Shown here: positions 691-64,000 of the stretch, one piece after another
How the letters are laid out: every line of letters begins with the position of its first letter
Numbering within the stretch: position 1 is the first letter of the stretch
From: an uncultured Candidatus Saccharibacteria bacterium
Lineage (GTDB): Bacteria; Patescibacteriota; Dojkabacteria; SC72
NCBI GenBank assembly: GCA_964405015.1
Contig: CAYOME010000001.1
Location: 165,584-229,583, forward strand
DNA: 64,000 bases
Direction of reading: 5' to 3'
Position numbers and translations under genes: made by a program
The notes under the pieces: generated by a model
What the model saw: only the letters and a program-made list of their open reading frames with translations
What the model was told of the DNA's origin: nothing
Databases searched by the model: none

Positions 691-2832
691 ATGGATCTAA
701 CAAAACTGCTCACTGAAATTAATACCTACCTTCCAGGATATGATATTAGAATTTTCTTTCTACTTTTTTTGATTTGCACATTACTTCTTAATATAGGATT
801 GCTTTTAATTAGTAGAAAGTTCACAAAAAAGATCTGGAGTTTTCTACCCTCCTTTTTACTTCTTTTAATATATCTCTCATTTCCATTCATACTTCATTTC
901 TTTGGATATACATATGAAAGATTCCTTTCTTTAGAATATTTAAGTCTTTCTTCTACCTACTTACTTTTGCTTCTCTGCGAAATACTCTTTTTAATATTTC
1001 TCTCTTTAAGGAAAGAAGTTACCAAAATATTCTTCTGGATACAGATCTCAATTTCAATTCTTTCCTTAATATTAATACTTGTAATATCTACCTTCTCTGA
1101 ATCAAAAATATCCAGTTTAGGTGCAAACAAGGAAGGGATATTAGAAGAAGCAAGTGGGGTATCCATATATTTTTCTGTACCAATGAACAAAAAAAACCTA
1201 GATATCCATATCTCTCCAGAAACAGAGATACAAATATCATATGGATATGTACTTAATTCCTCTAAATGGATTACCAGTTTCAAAGTACAACCAAAAGAAT
1301 CATTCTTACCAAATCAAAAGGTCGTAATATATACCACAGGTATTACTAGACTCTTTCCATATGGTACTAAACATGAAAACAGCCAAGAGTTCTTTACTCC
1401 AAAAACTCCAGTATTAGAACAGGTTGTACTTGGTGCAGATATTAACAATGTTCCAATTAATGAGAAAATATATATTGATCTAGATTCTAAAGATCAACAA
1501 TTTGTAGAGTGGGAACCAATATTTGAACCTGAAGTCGAGTATGAAATTAAGAGGGATAGCTCAGAAAGGGTTGAGATTGTTCCTCTTAATTTAAAACAGG
1601 GTACACAGTACAAACTTTCTCTATATCGTAATATTATCAAATACAATACACAGACTTTAGAAAAGATATCACTTGAATCGCACGAGCTTTTAAATGAATA
1701 TTCATTTAAAACAATACCTGCTCCTGGATTAACAGGGTTTAATAGGGATAACAGATATATATCTAACAAAGAACCTCTAATACTTACCTTCGAGAGTCCA
1801 TTAAAAGAAGATTCTTTAAATGGAAAGATTAATATTAATCCACAAGTAGAAGGAGATATTTCTCTCTCTGAAGATAAAAAGCAAGTTATCTTCAAACCTA
1901 AATCAGAATTTACTAAAAATACAGAATATACCGTAACCATTGGCAAGGGAATTACCAATACAATGGGAGGATATATTGAAGAAGATATTAATATTGCATT
2001 TAAAACACCTGGTTATGTAAAATTAAGTAGTTCTAGTCCATGGAATGGTGCTAAAGATATTAATATAGCTACGAAAAGTATATCCCTAACCTTTGATCAA
2101 CCAGTTAACAAAGAGAGTGTAGAAAAACTCTGGAGCATATCTCCAAGTATAAATGGTTCATTCTCTTGGAAAGATAATACGGTGTATTACACTCTTGAAG
2201 GTAATCTTGGATATGGTACTAAATATACCGTTACTCTTCCTGCAGGTGTTGTATCTATATATGGTTTAAACTCTGCTTTTCCAATATCATTTTCATTTAC
2301 TACTAAGCACGAAACAGTACGTTTGAATGTACCTCAATATTACCAAAGTGAATCATTCACTTGTAATCTTGCTGCTACAAGGATGGTACTAGCATACAAG
2401 GGTATATCTAGTTCCGAAGGAGGAATTAGAGATTCTATTGGTATAGGGGAAAATCCACTCTCCTCATGGGTCAATGGATACGGAGTTCACGCAGGTCCAA
2501 TATCTTCATATATTTCTTCAAGAGGAGTAAGTAACAGTGTAAGAAGTGGAATGAGTCTTACAAGTGCCCTACAGGAAGTTAAGGAAGGTCATCCTGTACT
2601 AGTGTATGTATACAATGGATATTCACAACCATATGGAGCATTTGAATTACCTGGGGGATTTACAGGTTACAAAGGTATGCACTCCGAAGTAATTGTAGGA
2701 TACGTAGGTAAACCAGAATCTCCAATATCTATATATACCAATGATCCATGGAGAGGACCAAGGACATATACCCCAGGAGCTTTCTTAAGTAAATGGGCAT
2801 ATCTTGGATATACAGGTATAGTGATTTACTAA
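691..2832 (+). CDS. Polytopic membrane protein with bacterial Ig-like repeats and a C-terminal papain-like (peptidase C39-like) domain
   Basis: The 713-aa ORF begins with about five hydrophobic helices, followed by a repetitive beta-rich region. The C-terminal segment YYQSESFTCNLAATRMVLAYKG ... GMHSEVIVGY fits the Cys...His arrangement of the C39_2-like papain fold. The call rests on motif similarity only. Confidence 0.5.
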   Translation: MDLTKLLTEINTYLPGYDIRIFFLLFLICTLLLNIGLLLISRKFTKKIWSFLPSFLLLLIYLSFPFILHFFGYTYERFLSLEYLSLSSTYLLLLLCEILFLIFLSLRKEVTKIFFWIQISISILSLILILVISTFSESKISSLGANKEGILEEASGVSIYFSVPMNKKNLDIHISPETEIQISYGYVLNSSKWITSFKVQPKESFLPNQKVVIYTTGITRLFPYGTKHENSQEFFTPKTPVLEQVVLGADINNVPINEKIYIDLDSKDQQFVEWEPIFEPEVEYEIKRDSSERVEIVPLNLKQGTQYKLSLYRNIIKYNTQTLEKISLESHELLNEYSFKTIPAPGLTGFNRDNRYISNKEPLILTFESPLKEDSLNGKININPQVEGDISLSEDKKQVIFKPKSEFTKNTEYTVTIGKGITNTMGGYIEEDINIAFKTPGYVKLSSSSPWNGAKDINIATKSISLTFDQPVNKESVEKLWSISPSINGSFSWKDNTVYYTLEGNLGYGTKYTVTLPAGVVSIYGLNSAFPISFSFTTKHETVRLNVPQYYQSESFTCNLAATRMVLAYKGISSSEGGIRDSIGIGENPLSSWVNGYGVHAGPISSYISSRGVSNSVRSGMSLTSALQEVKEGHPVLVYVYNGYSQPYGAFELPGGFTGYKGMHSEVIVGYVGKPESPISIYTNDPWRGPRTYTPGAFLSKWAYLGYTGIVIY

Positions 2833-22611: not shown

Positions 22612-25485
22612 ATGAAAAAAGAGAAAAAGAAACTTTCTAAACGAACTATACTTCTAGCAGCATTACTTGTAATACTTTTAGGTGTACCAGCAATAATATA
22701 CCTAATAACTTCAAATCAAGAAGAGGGTAGATCATGGTATAGCTCAAGTTGGATGTATAGAAAATCAGTTACTGTATCTGGCAATGGAAGTACAACACTG
22801 ACAAATGAGGATATATTACTAACTATAGATACCTCAACATTAATTGGTCAAGGTAAATTACAATCCGATTGTGATGATTTAAGATTCACGGATAGTAATG
22901 ATTCAACTTTGCTTACGTATTGGATAGAAGCAGGTTGTTACACTACTACGACACAAGTATGGGTAAGAATACCTTCACTACCAGCTGGTGGTAAAACGAT
23001 ATACATGTACTATGGAAATTCTTCTGCTACTTCTGGACAAGCTTCCTGGACTGGTAATTTCATTATGCTTTACAACTCTTCTTGCCCATCTGGATGGACA
23101 AGTATTTCAGGAGCAGGTCAAACCTACAATGCAAGATTCCCATATGGTAGTACAACATATGGAACTACTGGCGGAGGAGCACACAACCATGGGACACCTA
23201 GTTGTACAACAGGAACTTCTTTACAAGGTTCTGTACTTACACAAAGTGATAGCGGTGGACAGACTGCAGGTTCTTCCCATACACATACCAATGCAATGGT
23301 TTCCGTTAACAATGTAACTAATTTGCCACCATATCTGGATATGGTTTTTTGTACAAAATCAAGACTAGATATAAATATTGGGTTAATTACAGTTGCAACA
23401 TCTGTACCTTCTGGATGGACAGCGTTCTCAGCATTAAATTCTCGATTCCCAAGAGGCGCAGCTACATATGGAGGAACAGGTGGAGCAGCTACTCATACAC
23501 ACCCAACAACAGGAGGATATACAACTGGAGCCGCAGCTACAAGTGGTGATACTCCTGGAACAGATAAGGGGGCTTGCCCGCATACACATACTACAGCAAG
23601 TGGAACAACTGATTCTGCAAGTTCATATCCACCTTACATATACACATATTTCGTATCAAAAAATGCAGGAGGTGTAGCACATGCAGGATTAATTTCAATG
23701 ACAACAGCAGCACCACCACTTGGATGGACAAGATTTACAGGATATGATTCTAGATTTCCATTAGGAACAACATCATATGGAACATCATATGGAACAACAG
23801 GTGGAGCAAGTACACATCAACATACCTTAACAATTACTACAAATCTTGGACCAGGAACAAACTGTAGTGAAGGTAGTAGAGCAACTTCTGCTACACCAAC
23901 AAATCATAGTCATAGCTGTACTACAACAGCAGCTTCCGGTTCAACACTACCTCAATATGTAACGACCCTCTACTATCAACGCAAAACATCCTTGGCTGGG
24001 ACTTTGAATTCAGAAGAAGTATTTAATCAAGCACCAACAGCACCAACATCTCTACTTACAGAAGGATATACTAATCCTATACCAGTATCTGATTTAACTC
24101 CAGAATTTAGTGCAATATTTAATGATCCAGATACCTCTGATACTGGTAACTACTATCAAATACAAGTAAATACAAACTCGAGTTTTACTGGTACTGTAAT
24201 GTGGGATAGTGGAAAGACAGCAATATCTCCAATAACTAGAGGAGCAAGATCTACAGATATTTCATATGCAGGGACAGCACTTTCACATAACGGTACAATA
24301 TATTACTGGAGGATAAAGTTTTGGGATCAAAATACCGTAAATAGCGAAGGTGTATGGTCTGCAACTGCGAACTTTACAATGAATAGTGCACCAACAGCAC
24401 CAACATCTTTACTCACGGAAGGATTAACTAACCCTACGAAAGTAACAGATGCGACTCCCGAATTTAGTGCAATATTTAATGATCCTAATCTTTATGATAC
24501 TGGAATATATTACCAAATACTCGTAAATGATTCTGATTCCCCAGGGGACTACTCTTGGGATAGTGGAAAAATTGCAATTTCGGCTATAACAAATGGCGAA
24601 AGATCTACAGATATTTCATATGCAGGAGAGACCCTGTATTTTGATGGAAATACATATGATTGGCAAATAAGATTCTGGGATAATGCCGATGCAGTAAGTG
24701 TATATTCTGCAACAGGCCAATTTACCATGAACAATCAACCAAATCAGCCAAGTAGCATGCTAACAGAAGGATTAACAAATCCAACAAAAGTCTCAGATCT
24801 TACACCTGAGTTTTCAGCCATATATATCGATCCCGATGGAGATGCTCTTGGCCATTATGAAATAGAAGTTAATACAAACAATACTTTTACAGGAACTGTG
24901 ATGTGGGACTCAGGACAAACCGCTATGAGCTTAGCATCTGGAAATCGAACTCCAGACATATCGTATGCAGGGACAACACTTTCATTCAATGGTACCGTTT
25001 ACTACTGGAGAATGAGATTCTGGGACTCTGCAGGAACAGCAGGAGCGTGGACTTGGCCGTACCCCTCCTTTCAAATGTCAGGATCTCCCAATGTTCCAAC
25101 AGATCTCTCTGTAGATGGAGATCCAACACCAACCGCCCTTATAGCTTCAGCTATACCCAAATTTCAAGCAAGACATTCTGATCCTAACGGAGATAGTGCA
25201 ATATATTACGAAATTGAAGTAAACTCAAATAGCTCATTTACTGGGACGGTAAAATGGGATAGCGGTAAACAATCAATGACATCCACAAGTAGTGGAAATC
25301 TTTCTCCAGAGTTGTCATATGCAGGCACTGTCCTTTCATCAAATGGTACAACCTACTACTGGAGAATACGATTCTGGGATACAGATGACAATGTAAGTGA
25401 TTGGTCTGCAACGGCTTCTTTCGTAGATCAATTTCAATATTTTAGATTTGAAGGCCTAAAACTGGAAGGATTGAAGATAAACTAG
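22612..25485 (+). CDS. Large membrane-anchored surface protein with a DUF2341-like N-terminal domain, three HxH-containing tail-collar-like repeats and four Fn3-like repeats
   Basis: An N-terminal TM helix is followed by a DUF2341-like block (CDDLRFTDSNDSTLLTYWIEAG ... IYMYYGN). Next come three repeats of about 100 aa (GWT...RFP.G..TYG.TGG...HxH). Then four repeats of about 115 aa (PTAPTSLLTEG.TNP...PEFSAIFNDPD...YYWR..FWD) fill the C-terminal half. Confidence 0.6.
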   Translation: MKKEKKKLSKRTILLAALLVILLGVPAIIYLITSNQEEGRSWYSSSWMYRKSVTVSGNGSTTLTNEDILLTIDTSTLIGQGKLQSDCDDLRFTDSNDSTLLTYWIEAGCYTTTTQVWVRIPSLPAGGKTIYMYYGNSSATSGQASWTGNFIMLYNSSCPSGWTSISGAGQTYNARFPYGSTTYGTTGGGAHNHGTPSCTTGTSLQGSVLTQSDSGGQTAGSSHTHTNAMVSVNNVTNLPPYLDMVFCTKSRLDINIGLITVATSVPSGWTAFSALNSRFPRGAATYGGTGGAATHTHPTTGGYTTGAAATSGDTPGTDKGACPHTHTTASGTTDSASSYPPYIYTYFVSKNAGGVAHAGLISMTTAAPPLGWTRFTGYDSRFPLGTTSYGTSYGTTGGASTHQHTLTITTNLGPGTNCSEGSRATSATPTNHSHSCTTTAASGSTLPQYVTTLYYQRKTSLAGTLNSEEVFNQAPTAPTSLLTEGYTNPIPVSDLTPEFSAIFNDPDTSDTGNYYQIQVNTNSSFTGTVMWDSGKTAISPITRGARSTDISYAGTALSHNGTIYYWRIKFWDQNTVNSEGVWSATANFTMNSAPTAPTSLLTEGLTNPTKVTDATPEFSAIFNDPNLYDTGIYYQILVNDSDSPGDYSWDSGKIAISAITNGERSTDISYAGETLYFDGNTYDWQIRFWDNADAVSVYSATGQFTMNNQPNQPSSMLTEGLTNPTKVSDLTPEFSAIYIDPDGDALGHYEIEVNTNNTFTGTVMWDSGQTAMSLASGNRTPDISYAGTTLSFNGTVYYWRMRFWDSAGTAGAWTWPYPSFQMSGSPNVPTDLSVDGDPTPTALIASAIPKFQARHSDPNGDSAIYYEIEVNSNSSFTGTVKWDSGKQSMTSTSSGNLSPELSYAGTVLSSNGTTYYWRIRFWDTDDNVSDWSATASFVDQFQYFRFEGLKLEGLKIN
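24030..25430 (+). repeat. Four tandem in-frame coding repeats of about 350 bp (Fn3-like modules) inside the 957-aa gene
   Basis: Repeated DNA and protein blocks begin near 24031, 24388, 24735 and 25085 (gcaccaacagcaccaacatct...). Confidence 0.6.
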
Positions 25486-45286: not shown

Positions 45287-46219
45287 TTACTTTCTCTTAC
45301 TGTAATACAAATATACAGAACTAGATCCAAATGCTAGTACTGCAATTAATGCAAATACCATCATTAAGTTGTTACCAAACAATGCATCTAATTCACCCGC
45401 CGCTTGAGGTAAATTACCATCAACTACAGCATCTCCATTTACATCACCAGTAGGTGAGTAGTCTACACGAATCTTCTCATCCAATGTAACTTCATTACCT
45501 GCTAAATCTTTAACAGACATTGTGAATACATTACGACCTTCTTCTAATTCAATATTCTCTAATCTAAACACACCTTTATCATCTGCAACAACGTCATAGC
45601 TTAAGATACCTCTTTTAACAGTAACTGTACTATTTGGTTCAACAGTACCAGCAACTACAAAAGTGTCCTTGTTTGTCTCTTCTCCATATTTAATAGATAC
45701 GGAATCCTGTGAAGGAGCACTTCTATCTACCTTTGCCAGTTCAATACTACTTCTTGGACCAATTACTCTATTAGGAAAACCCTTAACTCCAGCAACAGAT
45801 ACTGAGTAATCGCCTTCATTCTCTGCGGTATATTCATATGAGAATGTACCCTCTCCACTAACCTTAGTACTCGCTATCTTTACATCATTTACATATACAA
45901 AGATATCGTCATATCCCAAAGCTTTACCTCTAACTAATATTGTTTCTCCATTAGTAATATCTGTAACATCAGTAAGCTCAGGAGCTTCTAAATCTAAATC
46001 TACCGAAGGCTCTTCTCTAAATCTAATGAAAGAGTAGATACCAAATGCAACTAGCAATACACCCAAACCGATGAAGACAGAACCAACCAAACGAGATATT
46101 TTCTCTTGATTGTTTCTCTCTGGTTGCTTTATCTCAACCTTACTTTGCATGTTATCTTGTTGTATTTCTACAACCTTATTATTATTTTGGGCAGAGTTAT
46201 TATTTTTCTTCTTAGCCAC
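45287..46219 (-). CDS. Surface protein with a C-terminal sortase-type sorting signal (LPQAAG-like motif, hydrophobic helix, KRK tail) and a dockerin-like Ca-binding repeat
   Basis: A long N-terminal signal/anchor is followed by beta-rich domains. The C-terminus reads DVNGDAVVDGNLPQAAGELDALFGNNLMMVFALIAVLAFGSSSVYLYYSKRK. The gene lies divergent from the sortase. Confidence 0.55.
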   Translation of the reverse strand: MAKKKNNNSAQNNNKVVEIQQDNMQSKVEIKQPERNNQEKISRLVGSVFIGLGVLLVAFGIYSFIRFREEPSVDLDLEAPELTDVTDITNGETILVRGKALGYDDIFVYVNDVKIASTKVSGEGTFSYEYTAENEGDYSVSVAGVKGFPNRVIGPRSSIELAKVDRSAPSQDSVSIKYGEETNKDTFVVAGTVEPNSTVTVKRGILSYDVVADDKGVFRLENIELEEGRNVFTMSVKDLAGNEVTLDEKIRVDYSPTGDVNGDAVVDGNLPQAAGELDALFGNNLMMVFALIAVLAFGSSSVYLYYSKRK

Positions 46220-46301: not shown

Positions 46302-47006
46302 ATGGATATGAGAAAGAAAACGATATTAAAATTCACATTAACAATACTCCTTTTAACAGGCTTTCTAATACCAGTTGGAATATTTGTAATATATCCAAAT
46401 TACAACAAACTAATTGGACCTATAAAGAGATTTAATATACAAAGAAGTACAGAAGAAATAACTTTTCAAATATTAACAACCCTTTCTCCTACTAGAGACC
46501 AAGTACTTGGAATAACTGATATAACATCAACAAACAAGACAATAGAGGAAAGTTTGGGCAGTAATTTTGTAATTCAAGAAAAGCAATTAGAGAGTTTAAA
46601 TACTCAAATTCAAATTGAATCCATTGAAGTAAAAGGAAAAGTGCATGAAGGTGTAGATTCCAATACTATGGACTTAGGTTTTTGGCACTTTCCTCTCTCC
46701 CAATATCCAGGAACTAAAGGAAATAGTGTAATCATTGGACATAGATATGCCAAATTGCCACCTGATCCAGACACTTTCTTTAATCTAGACAAAGTAAAAG
46801 TAGGGGATAGGATACTTGTAGAACAAGATAATAATTCATATACCTACATAGTTACAGAAACTAAGATTGTTGAAAAGAATGACATCTCTATCCTTCAAAA
46901 CTTTGGAGACTACCGTATTACCCTAGTTACATGTACACCTCTTTGGACTGATCATCAAAGATTGGTAATAGTTGGTAAACTGGACAAATTGTATAAAAAC
47001 ACATAG
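46302..47006 (+). CDS. Sortase-family transpeptidase
   Basis: N-terminal TM anchor, VIIGHRYA (catalytic His), ITLVTCTP (TLxTC catalytic Cys) and a downstream conserved Arg (HQRLVIVG). Confidence 0.8.
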   Translation: MDMRKKTILKFTLTILLLTGFLIPVGIFVIYPNYNKLIGPIKRFNIQRSTEEITFQILTTLSPTRDQVLGITDITSTNKTIEESLGSNFVIQEKQLESLNTQIQIESIEVKGKVHEGVDSNTMDLGFWHFPLSQYPGTKGNSVIIGHRYAKLPPDPDTFFNLDKVKVGDRILVEQDNNSYTYIVTETKIVEKNDISILQNFGDYRITLVTCTPLWTDHQRLVIVGKLDKLYKNT

Positions 47007-50271: not shown

Positions 50272-51303
50272 TTATAAATCCTTCTCCTTCTTAAGTTCCT
50301 TTAGTAATTCAAGCATGTGTTTTTTGAGATCAATATTCTCATCGAATAAACCGGTTCCATTTCTCTCCCAGGTCATACTTTTATCATCAATCATATTCCA
50401 AAAGTATAATTCTTCCACATATCCCTTTTCAGTACACAACTCTTTAAATAACCTATATGAATATCCCTGATACTCATACCAAGTAGGATAGGAAATACCA
50501 TCGCACACTACCTCTTGTTCTGGATTGATACTACCACCTTCATAATCTCCATTTTTAGGACCAATATCAAATTCAGTAATTATCAATGGTAATTTTGCAC
50601 TATCATGTATTTCGTCTAATACTCTATTGAGCGATTCTGTTGTAGGCAAGAAGAAAGGTCTTGGATAATATCCGCTATGAGCCTGTTCTCCTATGATATC
50701 TATTCTCCCTCCCAATTTCTTAATGTTATCAACTAGAATTAGAAACGGCTTTCTTATTTCTTCTCTAATTAAACAACCATATTCATTTATCATATACCTA
50801 CCTTCTGGATATTCATCTATAGCCCATTTAAAGATATCAGCAATTACATCTGTTTTTTTCATTTCTGTACCTAAAAAGTTCTCTTCATCTTCCTTGACTA
50901 TTTCGTTTACTAATTTAAAGAATGAGACTTTTCCCTTGTATCTATTTATTACAGCTCTAACATGATTTTCCAACGCTTGATATTTTTTATCAGAATCAAG
51001 TTCTTTATACCACTCTGGGAATACATCTAAACGCCCTGTAATTACAGTATTGAAATGAATACAAACACCATTCTCTTTAGCAAAATCAACAAGAAGATCA
51101 ACATTCTTCCAATCATATTCTATTTCAATATTCGGACCCTTAGCGATCATTCCAAATATCCCAGTTCCATACATCCCAAAGTTATTAAAATACTCTAAAG
51201 CCATTTCCTTGTACTTTGAAGATATGTTTTGTGAAGCAACATCATTAAAATATTTATGGTGAAGAATAGTTCCAGTTTTCATATAGAAGCGAGTTCTTTT
51301 CAA
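50272..51303 (-). CDS. Glycoside hydrolase family 10-like (beta/alpha)8 enzyme, no signal peptide
   Basis: It aligns with GH10 landmarks: VCIHFNTVITG, RYKGKVSFFKLVNEIV (acid/base Glu in the VNE context), RYMINEYG, RIDIIGEQAHSG and LPLIITEFDIG (nucleophile Glu in the ITEFD context). Confidence 0.55.
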   Translation of the reverse strand: MKRTRFYMKTGTILHHKYFNDVASQNISSKYKEMALEYFNNFGMYGTGIFGMIAKGPNIEIEYDWKNVDLLVDFAKENGVCIHFNTVITGRLDVFPEWYKELDSDKKYQALENHVRAVINRYKGKVSFFKLVNEIVKEDEENFLGTEMKKTDVIADIFKWAIDEYPEGRYMINEYGCLIREEIRKPFLILVDNIKKLGGRIDIIGEQAHSGYYPRPFFLPTTESLNRVLDEIHDSAKLPLIITEFDIGPKNGDYEGGSINPEQEVVCDGISYPTWYEYQGYSYRLFKELCTEKGYVEELYFWNMIDDKSMTWERNGTGLFDENIDLKKHMLELLKELKKEKDL

Positions 51304-56953: not shown

Positions 56954-56982
56954 TTGCTAGGTATATCCCATATTGGTATATT
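56954..56982 (+). promoter_or_regulatory. Candidate sigma70-type promoter for the giant surface-protein gene
   Basis: TTGCTA, a 17-nt spacer, then TATATT, lying 26 nt upstream of the ATG at 57008. Confidence 0.35.
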
Positions 56983-57007
56983 AAATGTATAAGTATCCAT
57001 ACCTATT

Positions 57008-60000
57008 AATGAAAAAACTGCCTAGAATACAGATAAAAAATATTAACAGACGAATCTTAGTAACAATAACTGCCATAATATTGTTAGTACCTTTGTTAAT
57101 TGTTTCACTACCATATATCAAGGTCTGGCAAGCGAGAGCTGCTGCAACAATATATTGGGATGGTGGTGGTGATGGAACATCATGGTCAAATGCACTAAAC
57201 TGGAATACCGATGTAGTACCAAGCCCAACAGATGAAGTCTTGATAGATACGGCAAGTACAGTCAATATTACGGATCCAATAACAGTAACCTCTCTTACTT
57301 TAGGAAAATCTGATGGAAGTGCAGCTACTGTATTACAATTTTCATACGATGCCGTAACACTTGGAGCATTAACTATTACTGGTAGCGAATTTAGATTAAA
57401 TCCAGGAGCAATCGTTAGACATGTAGATTACAATGGAGTTAACCCTGCAAAAGTAAATATTGATGTTCAAACAGGAAATGCCTTAATTCTTGGTTCTATA
57501 AATGTTGATGCGAGAGGGTACAGAGCGGGTGATGGACCAGGACAAGGAACTGATGGTGGTGATGGTGGTGGAGGTGCTGCGTACGGAGGTAATGGTGGAA
57601 GAGCACAGCAAGGATATGCAGGAGGTACTGGGTATGGGGTATATACACTCCCTACCGAATTTGGTAGCGGTGGTGGAAATAGATCTGGATATGCAAGCAC
57701 TGGAGGTCATGGAGGTGGAGTCGTTAAGCTAAGCGTTGGTGGTACTTTAACTGTAACGGGAACTATAACTGCAGATGGAAATGTAGGAGCAAACTCTGGT
57801 GATCGAAAACCCGGAGGTGGGAGTGGTGGTTCAATATTAATTACTACTGGGACCATAACTGGTAATGGAATTGTAAAAGCAAACGGAGCACAGGGTGGAG
57901 ACTCCAACTATGATGGAGGTAGTGGTGGAGGAGGAAGAATTGCAATATATTACACTACTAATACATCTTCATTCTCTACTTTAGCAGCTGCGGGTGGAAA
58001 TTCAACCTTAGCGGGTTCTGCACAATATGGTGGGGCAGGTACAATATATATGAAAACACCTTCTCAGACTAATGGTGATTTAATAGTTAGCAACAATGCT
58101 TCAGGATGGTCTACCAACCTTTCTGCAGAAGTACCATATACTCCACTTCCAAGCGCTTTAACACTTGATAATCTAACAATATCGAAATTCGCCAATGTAA
58201 ATTATACTGATACCCTCACCGTAGGAACTACTTCAGAGGTTTCATATTACGCATATCTTAATCTAACAGGTACTGCAACACTTAATACTTTCAATATTAA
58301 TAATAGTGGTCATTTTTTCTCCCAAGTTACAGCAACAACTACATACAATACCATTAACTGGACAGGGGGAATCATAACAGATAACGGAGGAACGTTTGCA
58401 CTTGTTAGTGGTGGAGCTGCTCTAAGTATTCCAACAGGATCAATATTAAATGGAAATGTTCAAAGAACATTCACCAATGTCACTGTTGATGGTACTCTTT
58501 CTCATACAGAGAATGGAGCGACACCAACAAACAAACTAGACTATATTATTAGTGGAAATCTTACTGTTAATCTATCTGGAAGAATTAATGTAAACGAAAA
58601 AGGATATGCCCCAAGCCAAGGTCCTGGACAAGGAGTTGATCAAGAGGGTGCTGGTGGTGGTGCATACGGAGGAAATGGTGGAAATGGTGCAAACGGAGTA
58701 GGTGGTACTGCGTACGGAAGTTTAACAATACCCACTGACCTTGGAAGCGGTGGTGGATTAAGAAGTGGTAGTGGAGTTTACGGTGGAGGAGCAGTAAAAC
58801 TTACAGTAACAGGTACGACAACAATAAATGGAGATATTACTTCAAATGGTGGATATGGAGACGATGGTTCAGATAGAGATCCAGGAGGTGGTAGTGGTGG
58901 CTCTATCTTAATATATACTGGCACATTAACAGGTACTGGAAATATCAACGCAAATGGTGGTAATACAAAAGATACAAACTACGATGGCGGTGGTGGTGGT
59001 GGTGGAAGAATTGCTTTGTACTTCACTAACGATACTTCCACATTCGCTTCCTTAACCGCTGATGGAGGAAGACCTGGAGCTGGAGGTAGGTATGGTGGAG
59101 CTGGTACTATTTACCTTAAAGACAACGACGATACATACGGTGATTTGATAATAGATAATAATGAACCATCTTGGTACACACAATATTACTATGTTGCATT
59201 AACACCCTTACCTTCAAATCTTACACTTAAAAACATGACCATTGCTGACTTCTCTATTATTGAGTCTTCACAGAGTCTTTCTGTAACTGGCGACTTAAAC
59301 ATATCTAAATATTCTCACTTTAAAAATATTGGAACCGCAACTCTTAACAACATAAACATTACAGATAATGGATGGTATTACAATGAATCAGGATCTACTA
59401 CTACATATACAACTATTAACTGGACAGGGGGAATCATAACAGATAATGGTGGAACATTTGCATTACTAAGTGGAGGAAATGATCTTTCTATTCCCACGGG
59501 ATCGACACTAAATGGAAATGTACAAAGAACATTTAACAACGTTACAATAAACGGAACTTTAACTCATACCGAAAATGGAGCTACACCTGTTTACAAACTA
59601 GATTACATAGTAAATGGAGATTTACTTGTAACTTCATCAGGACAAATAAATGTAAATCTCAAGGGATATGCAATGAGTGAAGGACCCGGTGCAGGTGCAG
59701 ACGGTAGTGGTGGAGGTGGTGCAGGATATGGAGGCTATGGAAGTAATGGCGATAACTCAGTTGGGGGTCAAGCATATGGAAGTATTACACAACCAACCGA
59801 TCTTGGTAGTGGAGGTGGATATGGATCAAACTGGGGAGGTAATAGCCGAGGAGGTGGAGCGATCAAACTTTCAGTTGCAGGGACACTTACCGTTAATGGA
59901 TCAATAGTCTCTAATGGTGCAAATGGAAATGATGGCACTGACAGAGTACCAGGGGGAGGAAGTGGTGGCTCAATATGGATTACAACAGGAACACTCTCTG

Positions 60001-63000
60001 GTACTGGTACCTTTACTGCAAATGGTGGAAATGCATCAGATTCTAACTCTGATGGTGGAGGTGGTGCAGGTGGAAGAATTGCTCTGTATTTCACAACAAA
60101 TAATGCAACTCTTGCGACATTAACAGCTGATGGGGGTAGACCATCAACCTCCAAAGCATACGGTGGTGCTGGAACTATATATATTAAAGACAATGATGAG
60201 CCCAATGCAGATTTAATAATTGACAACAATGAAACCTCGTGGAATACAGCCCTAACTTCTATTGCTCCGACCCCAATAAGTACAAACCTTAACTTAAAAA
60301 ATTTAACAATCACTGATTTTGCCCGGGTTGAAACTTCAAATACCATAAATGTTGTAAATGAATTATTCTTAGGTCAGAAAGCATATTTTGTAAATACTGG
60401 TAATGTGTCCACAAACACATTCAATATTTTAGAAGCCTCTACATATCTTAATCAAGCAACATCATCAATAACTTACAACACACTTAATTGGACTGGAGGT
60501 AACGTTACTGATAATGGAGGAAACTTTGCACTTTTAAGTTCAGGCGATAATTTGCTAATACCTATCGGATCGACCCTGTATGGAAATGTCCAAAGAACAT
60601 TTACCGGTCTTACTGTGAATGGAGTTTTAACCCATACAGAAAATGGATCAACACCTCAATATAAACTAGATTACATAGTAAATGGAGATTTACTTGTAAG
60701 TTCAACTGGACAAATAAATGTAGATCTTAAGGGATATGCAATGAGTGAAGGACCCGGTGCGGGTGGAGATAGTGGTGGTGGTGGGGGGGGTGGATACGGA
60801 GGTAATGGTGGAAATGGACAAACTGGAGCTGGTGGTCAAGCATATGGAAGTATGACAGAACCAACCGATCTTGGTAGTGGTGGTGGATATGGTTCAAACT
60901 GGAGAGGTAATAGCCGAGGAGGTGGAGCTGTTAAACTTACAGTTTCTAATTCACTTACGGTAAATGGTTCAATCATTGCCAACGCCGGTGGTGGTGGTGA
61001 TGGTACGGACAGGGTACCAGGAGGTGGAAGTGGTGGATCAATTTGGTTAATAACTGGAACACTTGCGGGTACTGGTACAATTACAGCAAATGGTGGGAAT
61101 GGAGGAAATTGGAACTCTGACGGTGGTGGTGGTGGTGGTGGAAGAATAGCTTTGTATTATAAAGAAAACACTTCAACATTTAGCCTATTTACCGTTAATG
61201 CTGGTACTGGAGGTGGAGCAGCTTTAAATGGTTCTGTAGGAACAATATTCCTTGGAGGCTTCCCAATGAATCCAATAAATATGGCTCAATACAAAATAGA
61301 TGGTGTAACTGGTATCGGGGCAGGTGCAGCTACAAACGAAAACAGTATGAAGATAAAATTCCAAATGATGGACCCTAATAATACAGATACACTAACACCC
61401 GAAGTAGAATTTGTACCTTTAGGAACCGCATTTAGTAATGTAGCAACAAATACAGGAACTCCAGTATCTTACACGGGTGCAGCAGTAAATGGAGAAGTAG
61501 AAGTAACAGGATTAGCAGATGGAAGCTCATACCACTGGCAAGCAAGAATATGTGATGCAACAGCTCTTTGTTCTGATTGGACTAGCTTTGGAAACAATAC
61601 AGAGGCGGAAGCTGATGTAAGAGTAGTAATGAATGCAGATCCAAATTCACCAACAATACCCGAATCCTCTTTCTATATAAACGCACAATATACTAACAAT
61701 CTTCAACCTACATTAGGATTTGTAATTACAGACTCAAATACCGTTGACTCAGTAGGATATCAGATACAAATAGCAACAGATGCTGACTTTAATACGATCA
61801 TTACAGATTACACCTCCGCAATGGCTGCACAAGGCACACAAACCTTTACAGTAGGACAAGCAGCAGGAACAGGAACATATGCTGAAGGAGCTGAATCTCA
61901 AGAACTTACAACTGGTGGATATTACTGGAGAGTCATGGCTATTGATGATAAAGGTGGAACATCAGATTGGACTGTTGCACCAGGTACACCATCATTTAGA
62001 ATAGATCTTTCGAGACCAACAAATGCAACCTCAGTATTTGTTAAAGCATATGCAGGAGCTACAGATCAATATTCAGAAGGAGCTGAAAACGTCTGGTTTA
62101 GAAGAAATGATCTTTACTTTAGTTGGACAGCAGGTACAGATACACAAGGGGTAAAAGGTTACTGTATATATGTTGGAGACAACCCCAATGGAGATCCAGC
62201 AACAGAGAAAGGATTGCTAGGATCATCCCCTATTAGTACTACAGGTACAACATGCCAATTCATTACTGACCAAACAGAAATTGATTTCTCTAATTCCGCT
62301 CTCAGAAGCTATGAATGGTTAACATCGAGTAATACAAAATATTACTTCAAGGTAAAAACTATAGATATCGCAAACAATGTATATGAAGGACCAGATGTAT
62401 CAAACTATGTATCTTTCAATTTTGATAATACAGCTCCACAAAATGTAACAGCAATATCAACACCAAGTATTGTATTCTCAAATATTGCAGATATGTTCTT
62501 TAGCTGGACAACTGGAACTGCAGGAGCCTCTGATGATAATTCACAAGTATTAGGATTCCAATATGCTATTAACACAAGAGATACTTGGTGGGGCAATGCC
62601 ACAGATACCTTCACAGGGGTAACATATTCTCCAATGGATAGGACACAACCTCTATATCTACCAGAGGAAGTACATAGTTCTGTTCAATTAGGACAAAATA
62701 CTGTCTACTTTAGAGTTGTAGACCATGCAGGTAACTACTCTGAATTAAGAACAGCTGTTCTTAACTATGGAGGAGAAGCTCCTAAGTTTGCACAAGGAGA
62801 TGAGATAACTGTAACTCCAGTGGAAAATACCACCAACACATTTGCATTCAGCTGGCCAGCAGCAACAGCATCAGTTGGAAATACAGTAGCTACATACTAC
62901 TACATGATAAATACACCACCACCAGCATCATATTCAACAATTACTTCTAACTCAGCAACATATATAGCTACTACAGAAACATCTCTTGAAGAATTCTTGG

Positions 63001-64000
63001 TACCAGGACTAAGAAAGGGAGCAAATACAATATATATTGCTGTTGTAGACGAAGCAGGAAATTACTCACCAACAAATGCACTCTCAGCAACCTTTAACTT
63101 GAATTCTGAATTGCCAGATTCTCCATTAGATGTTGCAGTTGCAGATATTTCGATAAAAGATGTATCTATTTGGAGAGCAGCAGTTGTATGGAGTGAACCA
63201 GAATATCAAGGTACAGGGACCTTAACATACCATGTATATAGATCAGAAGATGGAGAGACATGGGAAGAAATTGCAACCACAACAGGTCTTACATATGTAG
63301 ACACAGTCCCAGAATCAAAAACATATTACTGGAGAGTAGCTACAACAGACAACTCCGATGAATCTATAGCAAGTCCATCAATATCAAATGGGGTTTCATT
63401 GGTACCAAGAGGAAAATATCTAGTACCACCAGATCTAACATCAGGTCCTGCAAGCTCATCAATATCTACAACTAAGGCAACAATATCCTGGACTACAAGT
63501 AGAATTGCAGATAGCAAGGTAGCATTTGGTTTAGAAAGTAACAATTACTTTGAATCCGAATCCTACAATTCTTCAGAAGTAACAGAGCACAAAATTGTAC
63601 TAAGCAACTTAACACCAGGTACAGAATATTTCTACAAAGCAAAATGGACGGATGAGGATGGTAATACAGGATCAAGTGATGAATTAACATTTACTACAGA
63701 ACCTGCACCTCAAGTGAAAGATGTAAGGATTAGTAATAGAGGAGTAAGTGGAGCAATAATTAACTTTACGACTGTTAAAGCAAGTAGTGTAAAAATATAT
63801 TACGGAACAACTACAAACTTTGGTGGAGTAAAAGAGATAGCTACATCTAAATTAGAAACATCATATGCCTTAGAATTGAATCAACTAGATGATGGTACCA
63901 AATATTACTACAAGATAAATACACTTGATGAAGAAGGAAAAGAGTATGAAGGTACTACTCTTGATTTCACTACATTACCAAGACCAAGAGTCTACAACAT
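57008..64000 (+). CDS. Giant secreted repeat protein (more than 2,330 aa, 3' end outside the window) with Gly-rich beta-helix-like modules and C-terminal Fn3-like domains
   Basis: Translated by hand, the frame is open from the ATG at 57008 to the window end. The N-terminus carries a signal/anchor (MKKLPRIQIKNINRRILVTITAIILLVPLLIV). About 3.5 tandem modules of roughly 355 aa follow (GYRAGDGPGQG...GGGRIAIYYT...GGAGTIY...TINWTGGIITDNGGTFAL...). Then come several Fn3-like units with YYWRV and TEYFYKAKW signatures. The ORF track omits it because there is no stop inside the window. Confidence 0.8.
57500..61260 (+). repeat. About 1.07-kb tandem coding repeats (3.5 copies) inside the giant gene
   Basis: Near-identical DNA blocks recur, for example ttaactggacagggggaatcataacagataa at about 58355 and 59415, with a diverged copy at about 60485. 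The blocks ggatatgcaatgagtgaaggacccggtgc at about 59665 and 60735 also match. Confidence 0.75.

Follow-up and report, generated by a model that had tools for sequence, protein, structure and literature searches.

Little is known about how bacteria of the candidate phyla attach to their hosts, and their giant surface proteins are usually recorded just as 'possible adhesins'. The gene described here is a giant open reading frame (ORF) of 2,330 codons, found at positions 57009 to 64000 on the forward strand of a 64,000-nucleotide stretch of contig CAYOME010000001.1 (assembly GCA_964405015.1). The whole stretch is hereafter called the window, and its end cuts the ORF off. The giant ORF is a real gene, coding for a predicted exported surface fibre of about 2,550 residues in a Patescibacteria bacterium. 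The predicted protein consists of a signal region, an array of Gly-rich beta-helix modules and a stalk of immunoglobulin (Ig)/Fn3-like domains, which in the orthologues ends in a conserved tail and is accompanied by a pair of ATP-binding cassette (ABC) transporter genes. The Fn3 stalk, the tail and the ABC pair are the conserved unit, and the beta-helix array is one swappable head.

The closest described machines are the type VII ABC systems, which have been framed as machines each serving one external partner (PMC7668044, PMC5985334, PMC12646458). The present pair resembles FtsEX-EnvC/PcsB/RipC/CwlO, LolCDE-LolA, MacAB-TolC and YbbAP-TesA in having a LolD/FtsE/MacB-like ATPase and an FtsX permease with four transmembrane (TM) helices and a MacB-type external domain, and also in going with a single, specific exported partner. 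Those systems work with coiled-coil proteins that activate hydrolases, with chaperones for lipoproteins, with efflux ducts or with lipases; the partner here is of another kind, an Ig/Fn3 fibre of 1,000-2,900 amino acids with a C-terminal amphipathic tail. Unlike in the known type VII systems, the interaction is here deduced from gene linkage, and no gene for a MacA/HlyD-type adaptor was seen in the cassette. The giant gene belongs to a catalogued, uncharacterised class, and the cassette of stalk, tail and ABC pair seems to be a variation on the type VII theme of machine plus partner.

Short conserved C-terminal tags on differing N-terminal payloads, co-distributed with a membrane machine, are also found in the LPXTG/sortase and PEP-CTERM/exosortase systems and in the C-terminal domain (CTD) of the type IX secretion system (T9SS). 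The tag here differs from these in being an amphipathic helix without a transmembrane segment or basic tail, and the machine in being an ABC pair of the same operon, not a transpeptidase encoded elsewhere in the genome. The RTX adhesins LapA, SiiE and MpIBP are, like the present protein, giant repeat adhesins beside an ABC transporter, and theirs have a functional C-terminal signal. Unlike these type 1 adhesins, the fibre has an apparent N-terminal Sec-type signal and its transporter is of the MacB, not the HlyB type; no RTX family was matched in Pfam, and neither a membrane fusion protein (MFP) nor TolC was seen in the related contexts. Identity with the beta-helical adhesins (FHA/HMW1/EtpA; Hap, IcsA and Ag43; the Caldicellulosiruptor tapirins) is only 10-18%. 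In contrast to the two-partner secretion (TPS) and autotransporter adhesins, the protein matched no TPS domain in Pfam and had no TpsB partner, with no Omp85-type gene in 10 related contexts, and its orthologues end in an Fn3 domain and a tail of about 20 amino acids, with no C-terminal beta-barrel. To our knowledge the organism also lacks an outer membrane, unlike the hosts of TPS and autotransporter adhesins.

Giant Fn3, FhaB and DUF2341 surface proteins of Patescibacteria have been proposed as candidate host-recognition factors (PMC13059738, PMC11809585), and the present protein belongs to the same phylum and general class. The Gly-rich module, the tail and the ABC linkage are not mentioned in those reports, and a literature search found no description of them, which is not proof of absence. 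The class thereby gains a concrete anatomy, with a confidently modelled Gly-rich beta-helix module that has no Pfam family and occurs in about 7,900 representative clusters, and a testable hypothesis, namely a genetic tie between the stalk-and-tail cassette and an ABC pair of the MacB/FtsX type. The near-constant ABC adjacency suggests that fibres of this kind are mounted or driven in a manner not yet described.

Linkage of tail-bearing giant genes to an ABC transporter pair

In the closest relative, which shares 87% identity in the stalk, the giant gene is followed after 11 nucleotides by the gene for an ABC ATPase and then by that for a MacB_PCD/FtsX permease, and an SNase gene precedes it, in the same order as in the window. 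Among the contexts examined individually, the ABC pair was beside the tail-bearing giant gene in nine of ten. It lies downstream in P0001, P0005, P0006, P0007, P0008, P0009, P0035 and P0021; the closest relative aside, the other neighbouring genes all differ (P0005, P0006, P0007, P0008, P0009, P0035 and P0021). The pair is upstream, on the same strand, in P0099. No ABC pair was present in the context of P0022, a relative that has the beta-helix and lacks both the tail and the Fn3 stalk. On the P0006 contig (L005 1-15515) two giant paralogues of 2,507 and 2,504 amino acids flank a single ABC/MacB pair, which suggests that two fibres can share an ABC pair.

A metagenome scan with the stalk alignment found 80 loci, 59 of which had at least 2.5 kb of sequence past the stop codon and could be evaluated. 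Both ABC genes were directly downstream on the same strand in 56 of these 59; the remaining three comprised one locus with a convergent pair and two variant-tail loci without a pair. The linkage persists down to about 30% identity in the giant gene while the other neighbours change, and the ABC partners diverge together with it, being 56-66% identical in close orthologues and 28-39% in distant ones.

The ATPase belongs to Pfam family ABC_tran, with LolD, DevA, FtsE and MacB as its nearest NCBIfam models, and the permease carries MacB_PCD and FtsX, with MacB, LolCE and FtsX models nearest. The permease has the four TM helices of FtsX plus one extra N-terminal helix and an external domain of about 270 amino acids, and its nearest solved chains are YtrF, Spr0695, MacB and LolC/E/F. 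The orthologous loci thus have the hallmarks of type VII ABC systems, that is, a 4-TM FtsX permease with MacB_PCD between TM1 and TM2 and an ATPase of the LolD/FtsE/MacB class. The NCBIfam scores of the partners are all far under the family cut-offs (e.g. FtsX_Gpos, 31.9 against 225), so the partners form a separate subfamily and are not the division FtsEX.

The relatives with the variant tail that lack an adjacent pair are L002 (1-7522), L037 and L078, with L017 assigned to the same clade, and in L002, a GTDB locus, the giant gene is followed by genes for two proteins of about 1,000 amino acids with PQQ-like beta-propeller and CarboxypepD_reg domains. In the two closest contexts, L003 (13721-19807 (-)) with L004, and L005 (15518-22221 (-)), the opposite strand just downstream carries a type IV pilus-like cluster, with genes for an A24 prepilin peptidase, N_methyl pseudopilins, a protein of about 640 amino acids, T2SSF and T2SSE. 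Its membership of the conserved unit was considered and rejected, the cluster being downstream in L003/L004 and L005 only; a cluster of this type may also be present beyond the end of the window.

Orthologues and the conserved C-terminal tail

A homology search of 5.8 billion proteins gave 860 matches, the closest 15 of which are collinear with the giant protein. The full-length orthologues with four modules have 2,504-2,581 amino acids and 50-56% identity; the orthologues come from metagenome-assembled genomes (MAGs) of Patescibacteria, P0009 being named Candidatus Dojkabacteria (formerly WS6). All 15 collinear orthologues continue for 217-222 amino acids past the point at which the window ends, from which it is predicted that about 220 codons are missing and that the complete protein has about 2,550 amino acids. 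The C-terminus was judged from these orthologues, as the last approximately 220 codons lie outside the window.

In the close orthologues the missing part holds another two Fn3 domains and then a conserved tail, for which the consensus A-L-[DN]-L-V-[ILV]-x-N-L-x-x-x-F-G-F-L was derived over 53 loci. The tail is amphipathic and does not span the membrane (hydrophobic moment 0.39, mean hydrophobicity 0.37). Conservation climbs toward the C-terminus, the fraction of identical residues being 0.20 in the signal region, about 0.5 in the heads and cores of the modules, 0.31-0.36 in the connectors, 0.58-0.70 in the stalk and 0.81-0.90 in the last Fn3 domain and the tail.

The initial annotation had proposed looking for a C-terminal sorting signal that would link the giant protein to the sortase encoded at 46302-47006 (+), about 10 kb upstream. 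An LPXTG adhesin anchored by this sortase would be in keeping with that neighbourhood, and the C-terminus is outside the window. All 15 collinear orthologues nevertheless end in the amphipathic tail, with no LPXTG-type motif, hydrophobic helix or basic tail, and the only hydrophobic segment in the visible part of the giant protein is N-terminal. A likelier substrate adjoins the sortase gene: the divergently transcribed 45287-46219 (-) codes for a 310-aa Ig-like protein (Big_13/Glucodextran_B) ending in LPQAAG, a hydrophobic helix and SKRK, and its product is plausibly, as judged from these sequence features, a sortase substrate next to its enzyme. Anchoring of the giant protein by the sortase is therefore contradicted, and we regard it as highly improbable.

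Several searches were directed at the sequence around and beyond the window end. The SNase gene as query recovered a 3.7-kb Logan contig (L001) that breaks in module 1, 302 codons into the giant gene. The exact 52-mer from the window end was absent from the JGI metagenomes, and the scan of GTDB genomes gave one distant locus, which begins inside the giant gene. A homology search with the C-terminal 125 amino acids, aimed at domain architectures, returned only short fragments at contig ends, and the architectures were taken from the 80 metagenomic loci.

Ig/Fn3 stalk and interchangeable heads

The stalk, as far as it is contained in the window (61254-63998 (+), amino acids 1416-2330), comprises about eight Ig/Fn3-like beta-sandwich domains. 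Two Pfam matches on the forward strand are above threshold, Ig_Rha78A_N (PF25788) at 61692-61973 with 36.1 bits against 27.4, and the Fn3-type Pur_ac_phosph_N (PF16656) at 63459-63698 with 32.7 against 30; a PhoD_N-like match is found at 63834-63929 (+). The AlphaFold2 (AF2) model of the C-terminal 915 amino acids (alignment A2) is all-beta, with about eight beta-sandwich domains, a mean predicted local distance difference test score (pLDDT) of 84.1 and a predicted template modelling score (pTM) of 0.42. The best Foldseek matches of the model are Ig/Fn3 chains with E-values down to 2e-21, including titin/MyBP-C, contactin, Robo2, fibronectin FnIII 7-10 and the base of the Aureispira grappling-hook protein GhpA. 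Above-threshold scores and a beta-sandwich fold thus agree with the Fn3-like C-terminal array that had been noticed earlier. The stalk is nearly free of insertions and deletions, and is 61-87% identical to that of 14 orthologues and 46% to that of the fifteenth.

Complete tail-bearing genes numbered 36 among the metagenomic loci, and 35 of them carry no Gly-rich module. These 35 genes, coding for 1,030-2,745 amino acids, have in common a hydrophobic segment at the N-terminus, the array of Ig/Fn3 domains, the tail and the neighbouring ABC pair, and their heads are a Kelch propeller, a LamG/ConA-like lectin domain or almost nothing. It is because 35 of the 36 bear other heads or none that the beta-helix array is regarded as swappable and the stalk, tail and ABC pair as the unit; the same stalk, tail and pair with other heads is the pattern expected of a conserved mount with swappable binding heads. 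With about four beta-helix modules and about ten domains of 3.5-4 nm each, the fibre may be, very roughly, some tens of nanometres long.

Gly-rich beta-helix modules

Module 1 (57141-58343 (+), amino acids 45-445) has a longer N-terminal cap, beginning WDGGGDGTSWSNALNWNTD, followed by the first Gly-rich core and the first connector. Module 2 (58344-59405 (+), amino acids 446-799) consists of head, Gly-rich core and connector and is followed by module 3 (59406-60473 (+), amino acids 800-1155), and module 4 (60474-61253 (+), amino acids 1156-1415) has the head and Gly-rich core without a connector. The repeats were found by chunked BLASTP and a repeat search, the period of about 1,065 nucleotides being beyond the limit of Tandem Repeats Finder. 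Successive modules start 1062-1083 nucleotides (354-361 amino acids) apart and the copies are 50-76% identical in protein and 63-82% in DNA sequence; glycine accounts for 21% of amino acids 60-1420. A tandem array of about 355-aa Gly-rich modules had been described before, with a count of 3.5; the array and the module size stand, and the four cores and three connectors amount to about 3.75 modules. The orthologues carry from 1 to 5 Gly-rich cores, showing that the module number varies between lineages.

Modules 2 and 3 together (710 amino acids, 20-sequence alignment A1) were modelled with AlphaFold2 as an all-beta structure with a mean pLDDT of 92.7 and a pTM of 0.89, and the high pTM indicates that they form one rigid body and not beads on a string. 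In the model the Gly-rich modules are a rigid, right-handed parallel beta-helix or solenoid rod, with confidently stacked rungs of about 35 amino acids and long Gly loops. The resemblance to parallel beta-helix or adhesin rungs in the initial annotation was thus borne out by the predicted fold and by the fold search, in which the best structural matches were non-enzymatic adhesins.

The beta-helix modules might instead be catalytic, of the polysaccharide lyase, hydrolase or epimerase type, and the giant protein would on that view be a surface enzyme acting on host or environmental glycans and not an adhesin. The invariant columns of the module alignment are, however, nearly all glycine, the rest being Trp, Pro and a single Arg, and no acidic or basic catalytic cluster is among them. 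No enzyme family was matched in Pfam or NCBIfam, the adhesins found in the fold search are not enzymes, and related proteins exchange the module for lectin or propeller heads; an enzymatic role for the modules is considered improbable.

The Gly-rich module is covered by no Pfam family, and searching the PDB with the sequence of the whole protein yielded no match. Module 3 alone as query matched 7,885 representative clusters out of 1.84 billion (E <= 1e-3), and nearly all of the matches listed are giant proteins with 2-12 copies of the module. By their source names the module-bearing proteins include those of Verrucomicrobiota and Planctomycetota, with quite different C-termini. Amino acids 1241-1391 (nucleotides 60729-61181) gave 44.8 bits with the NCBIfam model gliding_AgmC_N (NF047640). 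Membership of AgmC, a Myxococcus gliding protein, was rejected, the score being far under the cut-off of 275 and confined to the Gly-rich core, and a literature search on AgmC yielded nothing of use; the sequence match suggests that the same Gly-rich unit, or module chemistry, may occur in a motility-associated protein.

Reading frame, N-terminus and upstream region

The ATG at 57009 opens a frame of 2,330 codons that is free of stops up to the window end, while each of the other five frames has 64-187 stops in the same stretch. A single open frame of more than 2,330 codons had been reported from 57008; the frame holds and the start does not, the frames beginning at 57008 and 57010 both containing many stops. 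No in-frame stop, which would have spoken against a gene, occurs between 57009 and the window end. The gene had also been said to be missed by the list of ORFs, and it is indeed absent from it, although not as overlooked biology: the program leaves out any ORF that extends past the end of the window. The only ORFs listed in the region are two antisense ones, at 56981-57265 and 59768-60346 (-). The second of these is, as the initial annotation held, an artefact and not a gene; its translation is Pro-rich because of the GGN-rich codons on the opposite, forward strand.

An assembly artefact or a decaying pseudogene, that is, a functionless repeat-rich open frame, might be suspected in a sequence that comes from a MAG, and short-read contigs do break in the repeats, as L001 does. 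Yet 2,330 stop-free codons are very unlikely at 33-40% GC, collapse of the repeats is unlikely with modules only 63-82% identical at the DNA level, and the gene has collinear orthologues from many independent assemblies and confidently predicted folds. The artefact explanation is contradicted by this evidence and has a very small probability. The initial observation of a giant gene is thus confirmed, and the core of its interpretation as a secreted repeat protein is supported as essentially correct.

Amino acids 1-44 (57009-57140 (+)) form a Sec-type signal peptide or signal anchor, with an n-region of charge +6, a core at amino acids 16-37 and the sequence A42-R43-A44. The core is an uncharged stretch of 22 residues and holds the only hydrophobic 19-mer of the protein, in agreement with the signal or anchor noted earlier. 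A42-R43-A44 followed by A45 is a putative signal peptidase I site; the motif [AVIT]-R-A, then [AS], directly before TIxWDGGGDGxSW..xNW, is kept in the orthologues, and the other residues of the signal region are 20% identical among them. From these features we infer a Sec signal that would be cut after A44.

In the single 87-nucleotide gap after the SNase gene, a promoter-like TTGCTA-17-TATATT with a TG extension is found at 56954-56982 (+), 26 nucleotides before the ATG. Motif and spacing are as first described, and their significance is not upheld, since the local 1 kb has 6 such sites against 4.9 +/- 2.0 in shuffled sequence, which is the chance level; by its position alone the site is plausible.

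The GC content of the giant gene (57009-64000) is 0.37-0.405, compared with about 0.31-0.35 elsewhere in the window, and its GC skew is positive. The higher GC is explained by the GGN glycine codons and was not read as a sign of horizontal transfer.

Proposed mechanism and alternative anchoring

We consider it rather probable that the giant protein is an exported surface fibre with a swappable head, the tail of which is engaged by the co-encoded type VII ABC pair. The fibre would be exported by Sec, with its signal peptide cut after A44, and would fold outside the cell. The last Fn3 domain and the tail, the best-conserved part, would then engage the external domain of the permease; the fibre and the pair are tied by gene linkage (56/59) and by co-divergence. 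The ATPase might either hold the fibre and actuate it mechanically, in the manner of FtsEX and EnvC/PcsB, or, like LolCDE acting on lipoproteins, extrude or release it to the cell surface. Binding to a partner cell or polymer would fall to the variable N-terminal beta-helix as the distal head, and the fibre may accordingly be presumed to act in adhesion, for attachment to a host or partner.

Several points weigh against this proposal. The variant-tail clade with the ending ..SL[RK]NLF[NA]F (L002, L037 and L078) has no adjacent ABC pair, so the linkage between fibre and ABC genes is not universal. The pair is also absent within the 64-kb window. That it follows the giant gene in this genome, past 64000, is likely from the location of P0133, a permease 84% identical to that of the closest relative, on an NCBI contig of 253,639 bp, equal in length to the one with the ClpP, ThrRS, MutS and SNase of the window, and from the shared order of SNase gene and giant gene. 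The run of 22 hydrophobic amino acids is long for a cleaved signal and could be a permanent anchor, in which case the beta-helix would lie beside the membrane and the proposed polarity would be reversed. Finally, the physical interaction, its ATP dependence, the surface location and the binding target are all things that we infer.

The fibre might instead be held only by an uncleaved N-terminal TM helix, and the ABC pair might then serve some unrelated purpose: it could pump out peptides or antibiotics, or contribute to cell-wall homeostasis, the function proposed for YtrEF of B. subtilis. Besides the hydrophobic N-terminal segment, the annotation of the permease family as 'antimicrobial peptide transport' or 'lipoprotein release', the position of YtrF as the nearest solved chain and the three or four relatives without an adjacent pair are in line with such an arrangement. 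Against it, the linkage holds in spite of divergence to about 30% identity, a rearranged gene order in P0099 and a doubled giant gene in L005, the partners diverge together with the giant gene, and it is the extreme C-terminus that is best conserved, while the N-terminal anchor is only 20% identical. Anchoring by the N-terminus alone is on balance quite unlikely.

If the tie between the tail and the ABC pair is physical, type VII mechanotransmission would extend from the control of cell-wall hydrolases, lipoprotein extraction and efflux to surface fibres, and the C-terminal tag could be used to find the surface proteome of candidate-phyla bacteria. A bolder version, which we hold to be doubtful, is that the last Fn3 domain and the tail are a new kind of tag for sorting or docking, which a dedicated type VII ABC complex would recognise. 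This complex would be a fifth functional class of mechanotransmitter, an ATP-driven mount to display, tension, retract or release giant adhesive fibres with interchangeable heads on the wall-bound, outer-membrane-less Patescibacteria. Such a mount, if it exists, could be the machinery with which episymbionts seize or release partner cells.

Other genes in the window

The window contains other genes for proteins with Ig-like domains. A surface-type protein of 957 amino acids, encoded at 22612-25485 (+), has a DUF2341 domain and four Ig_Rha78A_N domains, an Ig type shared with the stalk of the giant protein. The gene at 691-2832 (+) codes for a protein of 713 amino acids that combines a Peptidase_C39_2 domain with two Ig-like domains of the Big_5 type and, going by these domains, is possibly a surface or secreted cysteine peptidase. 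A GH10 glycoside hydrolase of the xylanase type is encoded at 50272-51303 (-), amid housekeeping genes of this reduced genome.

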